DNA from: Escherichia coli
GTDB taxonomy: Bacteria; Pseudomonadota; Gammaproteobacteria; Enterobacterales; Enterobacteriaceae
Assembly (NCBI RefSeq): GCF_016026235.1
Contig: NZ_CP065613.1
DNA length: 64,000 nt
Direction: 5' to 3' (one strand)
Shown: positions 2,528 to 59,222 of the stretch, in pieces
Position numbering within the stretch: position 1 is the first letter of the stretch
How the letters are laid out: each line of letters opens with the position of its first letter
Made by a program: the position numbers and the translations under genes
Notes under the pieces: generated by a model
Databases searched by the model: none
What the model saw: only the letters and a program-made list of their open reading frames with translations
Told to the model about the DNA's origin: nothing

Positions 2528-2628
<101 letters not shown>

Positions 2629-12105: not shown

Positions 12106-12945
12106 TTAGCGCCCCCGAATACCATCAGCCAGACGTTTGCCGTTACGCACCGACAGCAGCGTCAGCAAAGTGCGCCAGGTCATACGTTTATTGCGGATCT
12201 GGTAGAGGGTAAACAGCTGATATTTTTTACTGGCACGGTCGAATTTGTCTTTGTGCTTGCGGTAAAAGTGGAAGTATCCGGAGAATTTTTTCGGTGACGA
12301 GGTGATCTGCATTTCACCGTGATTGATATGCAGGATCTGCGTCGCCTCTTCCACTTTCCACGGTTCGCCATACTCCACCACCATCCGCAGGAAGATGTCG
12401 TAATCCTGTGCCGCTTTCAGTTCGGTATCGAACAAACACTCTTTGAAACGCCATGCCCAGGTAAAGACCTGATTGCCAATGATATTGCGTTTATAGAACA
12501 GGCGGCGTGAATACGGCGATTTGGGATACAGCGGCAAGCTTGCCGGTTGGGAATAGACTTCGCCCTGGCAAACGTAGTCGTTAGCGTACAAAAAGGCGTG
12601 AGTGACCAGTTGCTGTTTATGGGCGAGGAAGACGCTCAGACGGTTGGGTGTCCATTCATCATCATCATCGATCCCGGTGATGTATTCCCCTTGCGCCAGC
12701 ATAATCGCCTGGTTACGTACCGCGCACGCCCCGCTGTTAATGTCGTTGTGAATGTAAGTGATACGCGGATCGTTGAGGGCGGTGACGTACTGTTGCAGTT
12801 GTTCCCAGGAGGTGGAGCAATCATCCACGATGATCATCTCCCAGTTGCTGTAGTCCTGGCGCAGGACCGATTTTATCGCCCGAATCGCCAGTTGTTGGCG
12901 GTTCCAGGTCGGCATATAGATTGAAATCAGCGGATTGTCTTTCAT
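12106..12945 (-). CDS. wcaA: Colanic acid glycosyltransferase (GT2)
   Basis: 279 aa; GT2 motifs (ISIYMPTWNRQ...IIVDDCS). Confidence 0.85.
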   Translation of the reverse strand: MKDNPLISIYMPTWNRQQLAIRAIKSVLRQDYSNWEMIIVDDCSTSWEQLQQYVTALNDPRITYIHNDINSGACAVRNQAIMLAQGEYITGIDDDDEWTPNRLSVFLAHKQQLVTHAFLYANDYVCQGEVYSQPASLPLYPKSPYSRRLFYKRNIIGNQVFTWAWRFKECLFDTELKAAQDYDIFLRMVVEYGEPWKVEEATQILHINHGEMQITSSPKKFSGYFHFYRKHKDKFDRASKKYQLFTLYQIRNKRMTWRTLLTLLSVRNGKRLADGIRGR

Positions 12946-13007
12946 TGGTTGTTCTCCCGGAGTGTCGAGATGTTCTGCCGGTTTATAAGCTTGTTTACGG
13001 GTTCTGT

Positions 13008-13120
13008 TGCCGGATGCGGCGTGAGCGCCTTATCCGGCCTACGGAGCTGGTTTGCTTGCCGGATGCGGCGTGAAGGTAGGTCGGATAAGATGCGTCAGCA
13101 TCGCATCCGACAGCGGATGT
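13008..13120. repeat. REP/BIME cluster between wcaA and wzc
   Basis: Repeated GCCGGATGCGGCGTGA...CCTTATCCGGCCTAC type units. Confidence 0.8.
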
Positions 13121-13122
13121 CG

Positions 13123-15285
13123 TTATTTCGCATCCGACTTATATTCGTATTCGTAATAGCCATAATCCTGATACGCGCTGGCGCGGCGGAAGATGGAGTT
13201 CAGAATCACCCCTTTCACCGGAATACCGTTTTGCTCAAAGCGGCTCAGACTGGTTTCCACTTCTTTCAAGGTGTTGACCGCATAACGCGCCACCATTAAC
13301 GTGGTTCCGACATGACGACCAACAATTGCGGCATCGGTCACTGCCAGAATCGGCGGCGTATCAATCAACACCAGGTCGTAGTTTTTACTCGCCCAGTTCA
13401 CCAGTTCGGCAAAGCGTTCGCTCATCAACAGTTCAGAAGGATTTGGCGGCACCTGACCGCGCGGGATCAGGTCAAATTTGGCAATAGAGGTCGGTTTAGC
13501 TGCGGTAGTAATATCGCCCTGACCAATCAGAATTTCCGACAGGCCATTGACGTTATTGGTACCCAACAGCTCGTGGGTGTAGCCTTTGCGCATATCGCAG
13601 TCGATCAACAACACCCGTTTATTGGTCTGACTGATCACCGCCGCCAGGTTGGCGCAGACAAAGGTTTTACCAATTGACGGGCTAACCCCGGTCATCATCA
13701 ACACATTGTTCTGCGCCTGCATCATCGCGAAGTGCAGACTGGTACGCAGACTGCGGATGGCTTCAATCGCCAGATCGGTTGGATTCCCCACCGCCAGTAG
13801 CTGGCTCTGTTTATAGCGTTTAATCCCTTTGATGGTTTTGACGCTATCGCGCGCTTTCTGCCATTCCGACAGCGGGATGCTGGCATAGACGCTGATACCA
13901 TGTTCTTCCAGCACCTGCGGGCTTTCGATGCCGCGATTAAACAACGAGCGCAGCAGCACACCCACGATAGAGAGCATCAGGCCAAGGATAATCGCGCCGA
14001 GGATAATCAGTCCTTTCTTCGGTTTCAGCACGCCAGGCTGGGTGATTGCCGGGTCAACAATGCGCACATCGCCGACGGTGCTGGCTTCGGTGATTTTCAG
14101 CTCCTGCTCTTTATTCAGCAGTTGCATATAGACCTGCTGACCAGACTCGACATCGCGGGTCAGGCGCACAATCTCCTGCTGGGTTTTCGGCATCGCCGTT
14201 ACGCGACCGTTAAGTTTGGCTTTCTCTTCTTCCAGCGCCTGACGTTTCTCCAGCAGCGTGCGGTACGCCGGGTGAACTTTGGTGTACAGCTTGGAGATTT
14301 CCGCCTCTTTAAAGGTCAGTTCGTTCAACTGCGCGTCGATGTTCACCATCGAATCGAGCACCGCTTTCGCTTCAAGCGGCAGATCAACAGAATCTTTATC
14401 CTGACGGAAGGCATTCAGTTTGTTTTCGGCAACATCGAGGCGGCTACGTACTTCCGGTAACTGTTGCGCGAGGAAAGCGAGGCTTTTCGACGCTTCCGCC
14501 GATTTGCGCTCAATATTTTGTTCCTGATAGTTACGGGCGATGCTGTTAAGAATGTCGCGGATCTGTTCGCGATCTTCACCGGTATAAGTCAGGCTCAGTA
14601 CGCCTGCGTCTTTGCCGTTCTCCGTTACCGTCAGGCTGTTTTGCAGTTGGTTGATCATCCCCAACGTGGAGTATTTGGTGACGGTAAACTCACTGCCCGG
14701 GCGGGCGTGAATGGCTTCAACCATCAGCGTGACGCCTTCTTTTTTCAGCATCTGGCCCGCTTGCCCACGGGCGCTAAAGCCGCCATCACTGCTCAGGGTG
14801 TAGTTTTTATTGTCCAGCACATTAAGCGTAAACACCTGGTCCGCCATCTCTTTCGGGCGGTTAAAGGTAGTCACTTTCACCGTCTCGTTCTGGCGTCCCA
14901 TCAGTCGATCCCAGCCCGCCCCGAAAATCGGGAACGTGTTTTTGCTCACTGCAATATCGAGGTCGAGATCGTCCACCGTTTTACCAAGCACCAGACGCGA
15001 ACGAATCAACTGGATCTCGGCGTCCGATGCAGGCGGTTTGTTGGCTAATGCCGAACCAATGTCCTGCACTAACGAATTGCCGATGTTTTGCTCGATTTGT
15101 ACCAGTGCGTCGGCACTATAAATCGGCGTGGCGAAGAAGGTGTAAACCACGGCACAGAGGGCAAATACAGCGGTGATGCCAATCACCCACCAGCGCGCTT
15201 CAATGACGGTGCCGACCAGGCGACCAATATCGATTTCATCACTGCCCGTTACCGGAGCGGCATGTTGTTTTACTTTTTCTGTCAT
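13123..15285 (-). CDS. wzc: Tyrosine autokinase / polysaccharide co-polymerase
   Basis: ORF track 13123..15321; start trimmed to MTEKVKQHAAPVTG. Walker A GVSPSIGKT and C-terminal Tyr cluster YQDYGYYEYEYKSD. Confidence 0.93.
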   Translation of the reverse strand: MTEKVKQHAAPVTGSDEIDIGRLVGTVIEARWWVIGITAVFALCAVVYTFFATPIYSADALVQIEQNIGNSLVQDIGSALANKPPASDAEIQLIRSRLVLGKTVDDLDLDIAVSKNTFPIFGAGWDRLMGRQNETVKVTTFNRPKEMADQVFTLNVLDNKNYTLSSDGGFSARGQAGQMLKKEGVTLMVEAIHARPGSEFTVTKYSTLGMINQLQNSLTVTENGKDAGVLSLTYTGEDREQIRDILNSIARNYQEQNIERKSAEASKSLAFLAQQLPEVRSRLDVAENKLNAFRQDKDSVDLPLEAKAVLDSMVNIDAQLNELTFKEAEISKLYTKVHPAYRTLLEKRQALEEEKAKLNGRVTAMPKTQQEIVRLTRDVESGQQVYMQLLNKEQELKITEASTVGDVRIVDPAITQPGVLKPKKGLIILGAIILGLMLSIVGVLLRSLFNRGIESPQVLEEHGISVYASIPLSEWQKARDSVKTIKGIKRYKQSQLLAVGNPTDLAIEAIRSLRTSLHFAMMQAQNNVLMMTGVSPSIGKTFVCANLAAVISQTNKRVLLIDCDMRKGYTHELLGTNNVNGLSEILIGQGDITTAAKPTSIAKFDLIPRGQVPPNPSELLMSERFAELVNWASKNYDLVLIDTPPILAVTDAAIVGRHVGTTLMVARYAVNTLKEVETSLSRFEQNGIPVKGVILNSIFRRASAYQDYGYYEYEYKSDAK

Positions 15286-15287
15286 TC

Positions 15288-15731
15288 TTATACCTGCTCT
15301 GCGTTCAATGCCTGCGCCCACTGGCGGGCAGACCGTTCAAGTAATGTGTACACCGCTGCAAACGTTTCCCGGCTTTTGCGATACGGATCGGGGATTTCAC
15401 ATTCGTTATCCCAGTGACCAAACAGCATCACTTTGCCGCGCATCTCAGGTGCCATCTCGCATAAGCGTTCGATATGGCGCTTTTCCATGGTCAAAATCAG
15501 GTCATAGTTGCGACACAGGCGGCGGCTGATTTGTCGTGCACAGTGGCCTTCCAGAGACAGTTGATGTTCTGCGGCGACGCTGATAGCGGTAGGATCAGCG
15601 CCCTTACCGACCAGCGCGCCGAGTCCAGCGGACTCCACTTTCAGTTCCGGGTGATAACGTTGCAGTAAGCGTTCCGCCGTCGGGGAACGGCAAATATTGC
15701 CGACACAGACAACTAATATGTTGTTAAACAT
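15288..15731 (-). CDS. wzb: Low-molecular-weight protein-tyrosine phosphatase
   Basis: 147 aa; CX5R P-loop motif VCVGNICRSP. Confidence 0.93.
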   Translation of the reverse strand: MFNNILVVCVGNICRSPTAERLLQRYHPELKVESAGLGALVGKGADPTAISVAAEHQLSLEGHCARQISRRLCRNYDLILTMEKRHIERLCEMAPEMRGKVMLFGHWDNECEIPDPYRKSRETFAAVYTLLERSARQWAQALNAEQV

Positions 15732-15736
15732 GACGA

Positions 15737-16876
15737 TTACCAGTTATGAATGTCGCTGGCTGTATCCGTCATGTAACGGACACCGCTAATAGTTGGCAGC
15801 AACTGATTGATCAGACGGTTCCAGCGGGAAACCGGGGCGGTGGTGACATACACCACGTCATAAGGTTGCAGGCGGAATTCTGTCGCCATCACCAGCGACG
15901 TGGCATCGGACATATCCAGCTGGTAGATATTGGCAATCTTGCCATTACGCCCGCCCTCGCCTTTCAGCGGACGAATGACAAAGATGCCGCTGGCGTTGGA
16001 GGTGGTCATGTCGATACCTTCAGCATTGCCCAGAGCTTCAGTCAGGGTCATGCCGCTAAAGTCCATTTTCAGGGTGCTCTGTTTCTTCACTTCACCCATC
16101 ACAAATACTTTCAGATCATCATTACGGGGCACGTAGAGAATATCGCCGGGATAAAGCAGTCGGTTCTGATTGAGGTCGCCGTTTTGCATCAGCGCCTGTA
16201 AAGAAATGCGTTCTTCACGACCATTGTGTGTTAGCACTACGTTGCGCCAGTCAGCGGTGTCGGTCAGGCCACCTGCGGCGTTGATGGCGTCGAGAATAGT
16301 CAGTGGCACGTTGGTGATCGCCTGTTGACCGGATTTATTCACCTGACCGGAGATATAGGCCTTTTGTGAGCGGAAGGCGGCGATATTAACGTCCACCTGC
16401 GGGTCAGCGATGTACGTCGCTAAGCGCCCGGTAATATCACTGCGGATTTCAGCGAGCGTTTTCCCGACTACGTGAACCTTGCCGATATACGGGTAAAACA
16501 TAGTGCCGTCAGGCTGTACCCAGTTGCCGGTGTCGCTGGAGCTGCGGTACTGACCGGCTGGCGTGGTGAGTTCCGGGTGATCCCAGACGGTGACATTAAG
16601 AACGTCCCCCGGCCCGACGCGATACTGGTAATTCGCGATCTCGCTTTCCAGCGTCATATTGGGGCGCGCTACATTCGGGCGTGGGCGTAATTGGTCAATC
16701 AGGCGCGGGGTCAGCGGATAAACATTCACCATTTTGTCGAGATCGAAATCAGCGTCCTGCTGTTTGATGACGTCTTTGCCCATCGTCGACATATTGCTGC
16801 CCGGAAGTACTGTGCAACCGCTTATCAAGGTTACTGACACCAATAATGGCATCAATTTCATTTTGGATTTCATCAT
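15737..16876 (-). CDS. wza: Outer-membrane polysaccharide export lipoprotein
   Basis: 379 aa; lipoprotein signal peptide ...LISGC; first gene of the capsule operon. Confidence 0.93.
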
Positions 16877-17054: not shown

Positions 17055-17066
17055 CACGCTACCGCC
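17055..17066 (-). promoter_or_regulatory. ops element (RfaH recruitment site) within a JUMPStart-type leader upstream of wza
   Basis: Plus strand reads CACGCTACCGCC, so the minus-strand transcript carries GGCGGTAGCGTG, the ops consensus, about 180 nt upstream of the wza start codon. Confidence 0.7.
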
Positions 17067-32134: not shown

Positions 32135-32278
32135 TGAGGGTTAGGGAGAGGTTTCCCCCTCCCCCTGGTGTTCTTAGTAAGCCTGGAAGCTAATCACTAA
32201 GAGTATCACCAGTATGATGACGTGCTTCATCATAACCCTTTCCTTATTAAAAGCCCTCTTCTCCGGGAGAGGCTTTCC
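32135..32278 (+). ncRNA. sibA: SibA antisense sRNA (type I antitoxin); coordinates approximate
   Basis: Sigma70-like promoter TTGACA(32100-32105)-17-TAATTT(32123-32128); transcript region fully antisense to the ibsA ORF; imperfect hairpin plus T-rich tail near 32251-32278. Confidence 0.6.
32174..32233 (-). CDS. ibsA: Ibs-family type I toxin peptide (19 aa)
   Basis: Minus-strand ORF ATGATGAAGCACGTC... translates to MMKHVIILVILLVISFQAY; too short for the ORF track. Confidence 0.65.
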   Translation of the reverse strand: MMKHVIILVILLVISFQAY

Positions 32279-32492
32279 CGTTTCAGCGTCCCGCTGAAAT
32301 CATCGGCTTACCTCCTTTCGCCCTGAATGCAGTCTATCGCTAACGCGTGAATAAAATAGTTTCCTCTGTGATTATTGCGTAACGACTCGCAAAGAATATT
32401 TGCTGGCAGGATCGCAGACTACAAAGCCTACGGATTGACAATCTTATCGTGAAGGCATACTTTCAGGAGTGAGGGTAGAGCGGGGTTTCCCC

Positions 32493-33786
32493 CTGAGGAA
32501 TCCCCAGAAAACAAGACAGGCATAGTGAGATGTGATCTAATTGATTGTGCTAACAATTTCAAGGAGATCACCACTATGCCTGCACGTTCATTATGCCAAA
32601 ATTTCCTTAACAACATACTGGCCCCTTTGCATCTTTACCGTCAAAAATCACTGATTGACGCAACTAATGCTGTAATAAATGGCGCTTCCCTCACACTTAC
32701 CAGTATCGGGCGTCATTTAACCGGTACGGCATCAGTTAAAAACAAAATAAAGCGGGTGGATCGACTGTTGGGGAATCGACATTTGCAAAATGAGGTTTCC
32801 ACCATTTTTCAGCGAATTACCCAAAAGATTACGCGGGGAATGTCTCGTGTTGTGATACTCATTGACTGGAGTGCTTATCATGCCTCTCGTTTTCAGCTTT
32901 TGCGGGCAAGCCTGGCATGTGACGGGCGTTCTTTACCGTTGATGAGTTGTGTCGTTCCATCATCACAGACAGCGAATGCAGATGTACATGAGCGTTTTCT
33001 GGAATCGCTTGCTGAGTGCTTTTCCCCCGGGACTGATGTCATTGTTATTACAGATGCCGGTTTTCAGGGGCGATGGTTCCAACAGCTCCGCTCCCGTGGC
33101 TGGACCTATATTTGCCGGGTACTGGGCAATCATTATTACAATGTTGGTAATGGCTGGGAAAAGGTGTCGGACTCAGGCACAAAAGCATCAACGACAGCAA
33201 TTTATTTAGGTGAAGGCCTGCTGGGTCGAGATAAAAATGCACAACATGAAGGGCATTTTTATCTTTATAAAAGTAAGCCTAAAGGTCGTAGATTTAAACG
33301 CTCGAAGGAAAGAGCAACCAGACCATCGGTGACGGCTAAAGCTCGTACTGCCGGGAAATCACCATGGTTTATTTTCACAAACAGTACTGAGTTCTCGCCA
33401 AAACAGGTAATGAAATTATACAGCCGTAGAATGCAAATTGAGCAAAATTTCAGGGATGAAAAAAATCCTCGCTGGGGATTTGGACTACGGTTTGGTGCCA
33501 GTCATTCATCCGGGCGGGTCACGGTATTGAGTCTGATCGCAACATTAGCCAGTATCATTATGTGGTTAAGCGGTTTCAGTCTGGAAAACAAAGGGATACA
33601 TCATAAATATCAGGCAAATACAGTGAAGCACAGGCGAGTCATCTCGTTATTAAAACTGGCGGAGAATGTGATTCGACATTCTCCACTCATACTAAACACA
33701 CTGTCACTTGACGCAGGGCTGAAAGTTCTACAGCAACGGTATACCAATATGATAATGGTTTACTAAATTTTCTGGGGATCCCTCAG
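32493..33786 (+). mobile_element. IS10-like insertion sequence (IS4 family), copy 1, 1294 bp
   Basis: Imperfect terminal inverted repeats CTGAGGAATCCCCAGAAAAC / CTGAGGGATCCCCAGAAAAT; flanking direct repeat GGGTTTCCCC (32483-32492 and 33787-33796; 10-12 bp depending on end assignment); encodes an IS10-like DDE transposase. Confidence 0.9.
32525..33766 (+). CDS. IS4-family (IS10-like) DDE transposase
   Basis: 413 aa; recognisable similarity to the IS10 transposase (KRVDRLLGNRHL, YSRRMQIEQNFRDEKN, HKYQANTVKHR); alternative start at MPARSL (32576). Confidence 0.9.
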   Translation: MRCDLIDCANNFKEITTMPARSLCQNFLNNILAPLHLYRQKSLIDATNAVINGASLTLTSIGRHLTGTASVKNKIKRVDRLLGNRHLQNEVSTIFQRITQKITRGMSRVVILIDWSAYHASRFQLLRASLACDGRSLPLMSCVVPSSQTANADVHERFLESLAECFSPGTDVIVITDAGFQGRWFQQLRSRGWTYICRVLGNHYYNVGNGWEKVSDSGTKASTTAIYLGEGLLGRDKNAQHEGHFYLYKSKPKGRRFKRSKERATRPSVTAKARTAGKSPWFIFTNSTEFSPKQVMKLYSRRMQIEQNFRDEKNPRWGFGLRFGASHSSGRVTVLSLIATLASIIMWLSGFSLENKGIHHKYQANTVKHRRVISLLKLAENVIRHSPLILNTLSLDAGLKVLQQRYTNMIMVY

Positions 33787-51344: not shown

Positions 51345-51378
51345 TGCCGGATGCGGTGTAAATACCTTATCCGGCATA
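51345..51378. repeat. REP element between yegS and gatR
   Basis: GCCGGATGCGGTGTAAATACCTTATCCGGCATAC. Confidence 0.75.
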
Positions 51379-51388
51379 CAGAACAATA

Positions 51389-59108: not shown

Positions 59109-59222
59109 TGCCGGATGCGGTGTAAACATACGTGGCAGTGCTATGTAGGCATGATAAGACGCTTCCGCGTCGCATCAGGCATAGGTTGCCGGATGCAGTG
59201 TAAACGCCTTATCCGTCCTACG
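59109..59222. repeat. REP/BIME cluster between gatY and fbaB
   Basis: Three REP-like units (GCCGGATGCGGTGTAAAC..., CGCATCAGGCATAGG..., GCCGGATGCAGTGTAAACGCCTTATCCG). Confidence 0.8.

Follow-up and report, generated by a model that had tools for sequence, protein, structure and literature searches.

A REP cluster with the organization of an atypical BIME between wzc and wcaA in the colanic-acid operon of Escherichia coli

Three REP units lie between the export and biosynthetic genes of the operon

The window analyzed here is a stretch of 64,000 nt from one strand of an E. coli genome (contig NZ_CP065613.1, assembly GCF_016026235.1). It contains the export genes wza, wzb, and wzc and the glycosyltransferase gene wcaA of the colanic-acid (cps/wca) operon, all encoded on the minus strand (Table 1). 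The wzc-wcaA spacer (12946-13122) is 177 nt long and is part of the minus-strand transcript. A motif scan returned a single match to the ops element, compared to 0.07 expected, and this match is exact and lies upstream of wza. This element is where RfaH would be expected to load in a JUMPStart region, and its presence upstream of wza implies that the cps operon is of the RfaH-controlled type. Plus-strand ORFs across the wzc-wcaA spacer are annotated in none of the matching genomes.

The first-pass annotation of this DNA had proposed a REP/BIME cluster at 13008-13120 and had placed it between the export and biosynthetic genes of the capsule operon. Both proposals were borne out. Three REP units are present at 13009-13111, and they are extragenic, being bounded by the wzc stop codon (13123-13125) and the wcaA start (12945). 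The proposed end at 13120 is a few bases beyond the last REP (13111), inside a short arm whose pairing partner is the 3' end of wzc. A second BIME implied for the same operon is likewise real and lies at 2529-2609, between cpsB and cpsG.

In transcript sense, the order of the units is Z2-like, truncated Y, and full Y. The Z2-like unit begins 10-11 nt past the wzc stop codon and is in forward orientation on the transcribed strand. It differs by 3 mismatches from a Z2 variant with CGGA stems and by 7 mismatches from canonical Z2, resembles Z2 most closely in its center, and has near-identical copies at other E. coli loci. The Z2 consensus used for typing of the units has a 0-mismatch copy in another spacer of the operon, wzxC-wcaK of strain H15, which implies that this consensus describes a real family. 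In the transcript, a single C separates the tail of the Z2-like REP from the truncated Y unit, which forms a direct repeat (88%, spacing 49) with 13000-13024. The full Y unit is 1 mismatch from the Y consensus, where 100 shuffles gave 0 matches. A CCTAC end (the GTAG/CTAC tetranucleotide) is present on both full REP units and absent from the truncated Y.

The orientation of the units alternates in the manner of a BIME, with the Z2-like unit on the minus strand facing the Y units on the plus strand. Canonical BIME-1 has the layout Y-L/IHF-Z1, and BIME-2 consists of regularly alternating Y and Z2 units joined by defined linker motifs. Here, the truncated Y sits between the Z2-like and full Y units, and Z1 is absent. 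The wzc-wcaA cluster is best called an atypical BIME. Single REP units from the spacer also match other loci, and the 92-nt spacer of K-12 with its Y unit matched a median of at least 39 places per genome and is therefore dispersed and multi-copy. Searches of Rfam gave only sub-threshold matches, to naRNA4, a REP325-derived family. The RefSeq annotation of MG1655 contains no repeat features, even at REP325, and absence of REP annotation is thus uninformative.

Base composition is skewed throughout the region. C accounts for 36-40% and G for 22-26% of bases across the REP cluster, and the 62 nt at 12946-13007 contain 19 C and 11 G.

Table 1. Positions of genes, REP units, and related features in the window
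Feature	Positions	Strand	Sequence or remarks
ops element	17055-17066	-	GGCGGTAGCGTG; exact match, ~180 nt upstream of wza
wza	15737-16876	-	
wzb	15288-15731	-	
wzc	13123-15321	-	tyrosine kinase; gene upstream of the REP cluster; stop TAA 13123-13125
Small hairpin around wzc stop codon	13112-13138	-	predicted, -9.8 kcal/mol
Z2-like long-loop REP, 36 nt	13076-13111	-	GTCGGATGCGATGCTGACGCATCTTATCCGACCTAC
Truncated Y REP, 5' half only	13058-13074	+	GCCGGATGCGGCGTGAA; core GGATGCGGCG at 13061
Linker between the two Y units	13043-13057		transcript sense GCAAACCAGCTCC
Full Y REP	13009-13042	+	GCCGGATGCGGCGTGAGCGCCTTATCCGGCCTAC; inverted relative to transcript and to Z2-like unit
Post-REP spacer	12946-13008	-	more C than G, mostly unstructured; ends in wcaA ribosome-binding site GGGAG
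wcaA	12106-12945	-	glycosyltransferase; first biosynthetic gene past the REP cluster; start at 12945
cpsB-cpsG BIME	2529-2609		inverted pair in 192-nt spacer: Z2 2529-2564 (+), Y-like 2576-2609 (-)

REP pairs recur in the long spacers of the operon

In the annotation of strain H15, only four junctions of the operon exceed 25 nt: wzc-wcaA (177 nt), cpsB-cpsG (192 nt), cpsG-wcaJ (54 nt), and wzxC-wcaK (179 nt). A Y-like/Z2 REP pair is present in each of the three long spacers (wzc-wcaA, cpsB-cpsG, and wzxC-wcaK), which would be expected if REPs merely fill any gap that is tolerated. The wcaD-wcaE, wcaE-wcaF, wcaF-gmd, and wcaL-wcaM spacers of the E. coli operon (10-25 nt) are empty.

The wzc-wcaA spacer is polymorphic within E. 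coli

Junction-specific queries were run against 5,426 complete E. coli genomes and distinguished three common alleles. The 177-nt form of the window, with Z2-like, half Y, and full Y units, was present in 1,136 genomes and is also the form of O157:H7 strain TR01. A 128-nt form, in which the Z2-like REP is fused directly to the half Y, was present in 997 genomes, and a 92-nt K-12-type form was present in at least 2,694. The locus is thus polymorphic, and the allele carried by the window is in the minority. Every E. coli allele retains at least one intact REP hairpin.

The window and K-12 alleles are alike in locus, flanking genes, the Y-type REP and its orientation, and the linker GCAAACCAGCTC; in the alignment, the sequence at 13043-13057 also follows the single REP of the K-12 allele. 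They differ in that the K-12 allele contains one REP, which lies 24 nt past the stop codon, whereas the window allele contains a Z2-like REP at 10-11 nt, an extra half Y, and ~45 nt of additional C-rich post-REP spacer that is missing from the K-12 allele. Judged from its sequence, the 128-nt form would be the product expected if the 177-nt form underwent a deletion between its two 20-nt direct repeats of half-Y sequence. BIMEs are known to be polymorphic in this way.

The REP units are predicted to form stable RNA hairpins

The predicted fold of the RNA at 12940-13145 had an energy of -72.5 kcal/mol, compared to -48.7 ± 4.4 kcal/mol for shuffles (z -5.4). Considered singly, the Z2-like and full Y units were predicted to form hairpins of -19.4 and -19.5 kcal/mol, respectively. 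In an alternative predicted fold, the Z2-like unit anneals to the Y unit, and the two make up a single extended hairpin of 107 nt (-53.7 kcal/mol). The head of the Z2-like REP (13101-13111) repeats exactly the sequence of the last wzc codons, GTCGGATGCGA (13128-13138, ...SDAK), from which it lies 27 nt downstream. All alleles carry this wzc-end sequence, even those that lack the Z2-like unit. The identity could be a coincidence, or it could have served as a homology anchor for REP rearrangement.

Unrelated palindromes occupy the same junction in other genera

A WcaA scan with one genome per species yielded 80 loci, and both gene ends were present in 79 of them. The end of Wzc (...YEYEY.SD.K, followed by the stop codon) is at the same place in 79/79 species, and the N-terminal region of WcaA (...PLISIYMPTW) is conserved across the 79 species. 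The wzc-wcaA spacer of these enterobacterial species varies from 10 to 347 nt (median 103). It is at least 56 nt long in 68/79 species, and stable palindromes fill nearly all of these longer spacers; the exceptions are a few Citrobacter with degenerate REPs, whose fold was no better than that of shuffles. The spacer is only 10-28 nt long and hairpin-free in 11/79 species (Leclercia, Silvania, Cedecea, Pluralibacter, Pseudescherichia vulneris, and relatives), which implies that the hairpin is dispensable for a working operon.

REP-type palindromes are found at the junction in Escherichia, Salmonella, and many Citrobacter. A family of the form CCCTCACCC...GGGAGAGGG...GGGTGAGGG, which we take to be boxC-like, is found in Enterobacter, Lelliottia, Kluyvera, Phytobacter, and others, at times as tandem arrays. 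In E. coli, this family is likewise scattered over intergenic regions, at a median of 4 places per genome. ERIC-like elements are present at three loci, and other hairpins occur in Kosakonia, Franconibacter, and Kluyvera ascorbata. The counts for repeat families are approximate, since they depend on a motif-based classifier. A motif proximal to the Shine-Dalgarno sequence, GCCATTCGGGGAA, is common to short and long spacers, which suggests an ancestral spacer of ~20 nt that was invaded several times independently.

The hairpin lies at most 15 nt from the wzc stop codon in 56/68 species, with a median distance of 7.5 nt. We considered this proximity as a sign of selection and discarded the argument, since the same pattern results when elements insert into an ancestral spacer of ~20 nt.

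Tandem boxC-like arrays were seen at spacers of ~300-350 nt in Pseudenterobacter timonensis, Enterobacteriaceae isolate RIT714, and Superficieibacter electus (loci L029, L036, and L066, positions ~1140-1490); their predicted folding energies range from -176 to -204 kcal/mol. Loci L050, L077, and L081 (two Citrobacter and one Raoultella-labeled MAG) contain a short element, …CGAGTTGCAGG…GAAGTATGAC…, upstream of wcaA. This element resembles ERIC/IRU, and a REP remnant lies beside it in at least L050.

Comparison with stem-loops and REPs of known effect

A stem-loop transcriptional attenuator directly after wzc in the cps operon is described in a passage of PMC2516531, and similar post-wzc stem-loops in Klebsiella cps loci are described in a passage of PMC3438125. 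A passage of PMC3673037, citing Rahn and Whitfield (2003), states that the genes downstream of wzc need RfaH. The wzc-wcaA region resembles the group 1 capsule attenuator (E. coli K30 and Klebsiella cps) in having a hairpin between wzc and the first serotype or biosynthetic gene and JUMPStart/ops with RfaH upstream, and its hairpin, like that of the K30 type, is directly 3' of wzc in an ops-bearing operon. In contrast, the K30/Klebsiella stem-loops have been described as small and terminator-like (~-8.5 kcal/mol in Kp13), whereas the REPs at wzc-wcaA are predicted at ~-19 kcal/mol each and are not followed by a U-tract. Our literature searches returned nothing on a wzc-wcaA stem-loop in the colanic-acid context, and searches for REP together with wzc returned unrelated uses only. 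The wzc-wcaA cluster is a REP/BIME of the ordinary kind, and a stem-loop attenuator had been described before at this position; the only mildly new point is the recurrence of unrelated palindromic repeats at wzc-wcaA across genera.

Two intra-operon REP systems bear on what such a cluster may do. REP325 stabilizes yjdM mRNA and cuts yjdN transcription about ten-fold, in part by a Rho-dependent route (bioRxiv 10.64898/2026.03.23.713779). Like the wzc-wcaA cluster, REP325 is a multi-unit REP cluster between co-transcribed genes (yjdM and yjdN); unlike it, REP325 has another locus and unit number, and RfaH control of the cps operon should blunt Rho-dependent loss. At malE-malF (Newbury et al., 1987, as cited in a passage of PMC6061677), REPs shield the upstream segment from 3' exonucleases and thereby lead to differential expression. 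The malE-malF and wzc-wcaA REPs are alike as intra-operon hairpins and differ in unit composition, and protection was established experimentally at malE-malF, whereas we infer it here.

A possible RNA-level role of the REP hairpins

We favor an RNA-level role in which the REP hairpins act both as a barrier to 3' exonucleases and as a partial Rho-dependent attenuator, and we give this reading about even odds (a probability of roughly 0.5). The attenuation or stabilization role proposed by the first-pass annotation is plausible and agrees with the published descriptions of this position and of REPs inside other operons. The identity of the units and their predicted fold were observed here, and for the effect on the transcript we argue by analogy with homologous positions and with REPs inside other operons. 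The cluster is carried in a long minus-strand mRNA that starts upstream of wza and contains ops for RfaH. Its units could fold in two ways, either as separate hairpins of ~-19 kcal/mol or as one Z2/Y hairpin of ~100 nt, with no U-tract following. The hairpins would stop 3'-to-5' exonucleases, such that the wza-wzb-wzc segment outlives the distal mRNA. In combination with the C-rich spacer, which is untranslated and compatible in sequence with Rho loading, they may also cause a partial, Rho-dependent loss of transcription ahead of wcaA, and RfaH-modified polymerase would mostly override this loss. As a net outcome, the export machinery would exceed the biosynthetic enzymes in amount.

In support of this reading, we counted the identity of the REPs, their stable predicted fold, their position between conserved gene ends, the ops element, the C-rich post-REP spacer, the intact REP hairpin in all E. 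coli alleles, and the spacers of at least 56 nt in 68/79 species. Counted against it were the allele polymorphism, the 11/79 hairpin-free species, the REPs in all three long spacers, the lack of an intrinsic terminator on the sense strand, and the K-12 microarray values given below.

Published expression data show no clear step at the junction. In a K-12 colicin M microarray (PMC3599342), log2 values were 6.72 for wzc, 5.7 for wcaA, and ~7.2 for wcaD-F; induction of wcaA was thus ~1 log2 unit below that of wzc and recovered in later genes, without a clear sustained step. An O157:H7 RNA-seq table likewise shows no clear step from wzc to wcaA; both datasets report only fold changes. We found no published 3'-end data for wzc-wcaA, and the supplements of Adams et al. 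(2021) do not include wzc, wcaA, or wza.

A broader form of this reading is that selection has kept a hairpin at the junction across the Enterobacteriaceae, recruiting any resident repeat family, and that the E. coli alleles set the export:synthesis ratio and capsule output. We put this forward tentatively and regard it as doubtful. If hairpins do set the ratio of Wza-Wzb-Wzc to biosynthetic enzymes, then the three alleles would constitute a natural, promoter-independent dial on colanic acid and mucoidy, and the repeated occupation by unrelated repeats would, if the reading is true, be a clear case of mobile palindromes co-opted as operon punctuation.

Alternative explanations

The main rival, and a serious one, is that the junction is a neutral insertion hot spot: mobile palindromes (REPs mobilized by RAYT transposases, boxC-like elements, and ERIC-like elements) would have been inserted and reshuffled repeatedly at one of the few uncoupled spacers, with no selected function and with any transcript effects being incidental. 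We consider such neutral or selfish occupancy possible rather than probable. It would account for the three common E. coli alleles, of which the 128-nt form is explicable by half-Y repeat deletion, for the unrelated repeat families of different genera and the 11 species that have none, and for the REP pairs in the other long spacers of the operon. The conserved GCCATTCGGGGAA beside the insertions points in the same direction, as it suggests repeated invasion of an ancestral ~20-nt spacer, into which insertion would automatically place hairpins close to the stop codon (median 7.5 nt). On the other hand, for a single junction, occupation in 68/79 species is high, all the more so with four or more types of element involved; nothing occupies the remaining 10-25 nt spacers of the operon in E. 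coli, and the literature credits a stem-loop at this position with attenuation.

A second alternative is translational down-regulation of Wzc, in which a terminating ribosome melts the base of the hairpin and stalls, leading to mRNA cleavage, trans-translation, and less Wzc. Liang et al. (2015), as summarized in PMC12306157, reported this mechanism for REPs located within 15 nt past a stop codon. The Z2-like REP of the window allele is within this distance, and an additional small hairpin encloses the wzc stop codon. The REP of the K-12 allele, at 24 nt, is beyond it, and the effect would therefore be allele-specific; moreover, this 92-nt allele is the commonest, and a species-wide role of the site in limiting Wzc is therefore excluded. 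We regard translational down-regulation as improbable, and it can coexist with the exonuclease-barrier and attenuator reading that we favor.

A role at the DNA level is very improbable. The inverted Y/Z2 pair could be a BIME-2-type gyrase site that eases supercoiling ahead of polymerase in a strongly inducible operon of 20 kb; DNA gyrase is known to bind BIME-2, and inverted Y and Z2-like pairs are present here and in two other long spacers of the operon. However, the truncated Y interrupts the pair such that the canonical Y-Z2 spacing is lost, the commonest allele contains a single Y REP, and other genera have non-REP palindromes or nothing at this position. Finally, division of the operon into two transcription units by an intrinsic terminator or an internal wcaA promoter is scarcely credible and was already disfavored, since, although the GC-rich hairpins are very stable, we found neither a hairpin with a U-tract on the minus (sense) strand, where terminator-like matches were antisense only, nor a sigma-70-like promoter in 12500-13600.

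Additional repeats and genes in the window

Besides the wzc-wcaA cluster, the window contains four REP sites. The cpsB-cpsG BIME is listed in Table 1; an inverted Z2/Y REP pair lies at 59145-59221 and a lone Y-like REP at 51346-51379, and yegH and asmA flank a REP tail, CTTATCAGGCCTAC, at ~19358. The third REP pair of the operon, in the wzxC-wcaK spacer of strain H15, is outside the window. The 54-nt cpsG-wcaJ spacer (window ~1015-1068) contains a non-REP hairpin, CCCTTACCCC...GGGGTAAGGG. Between yegL and mdtA, at window positions ~32187-32900, there are three tandem type I toxin genes of the Ibs family (ibsA with two paralogues), as placed from the annotation of the near-identical strain H15 (L006 39388-40104).
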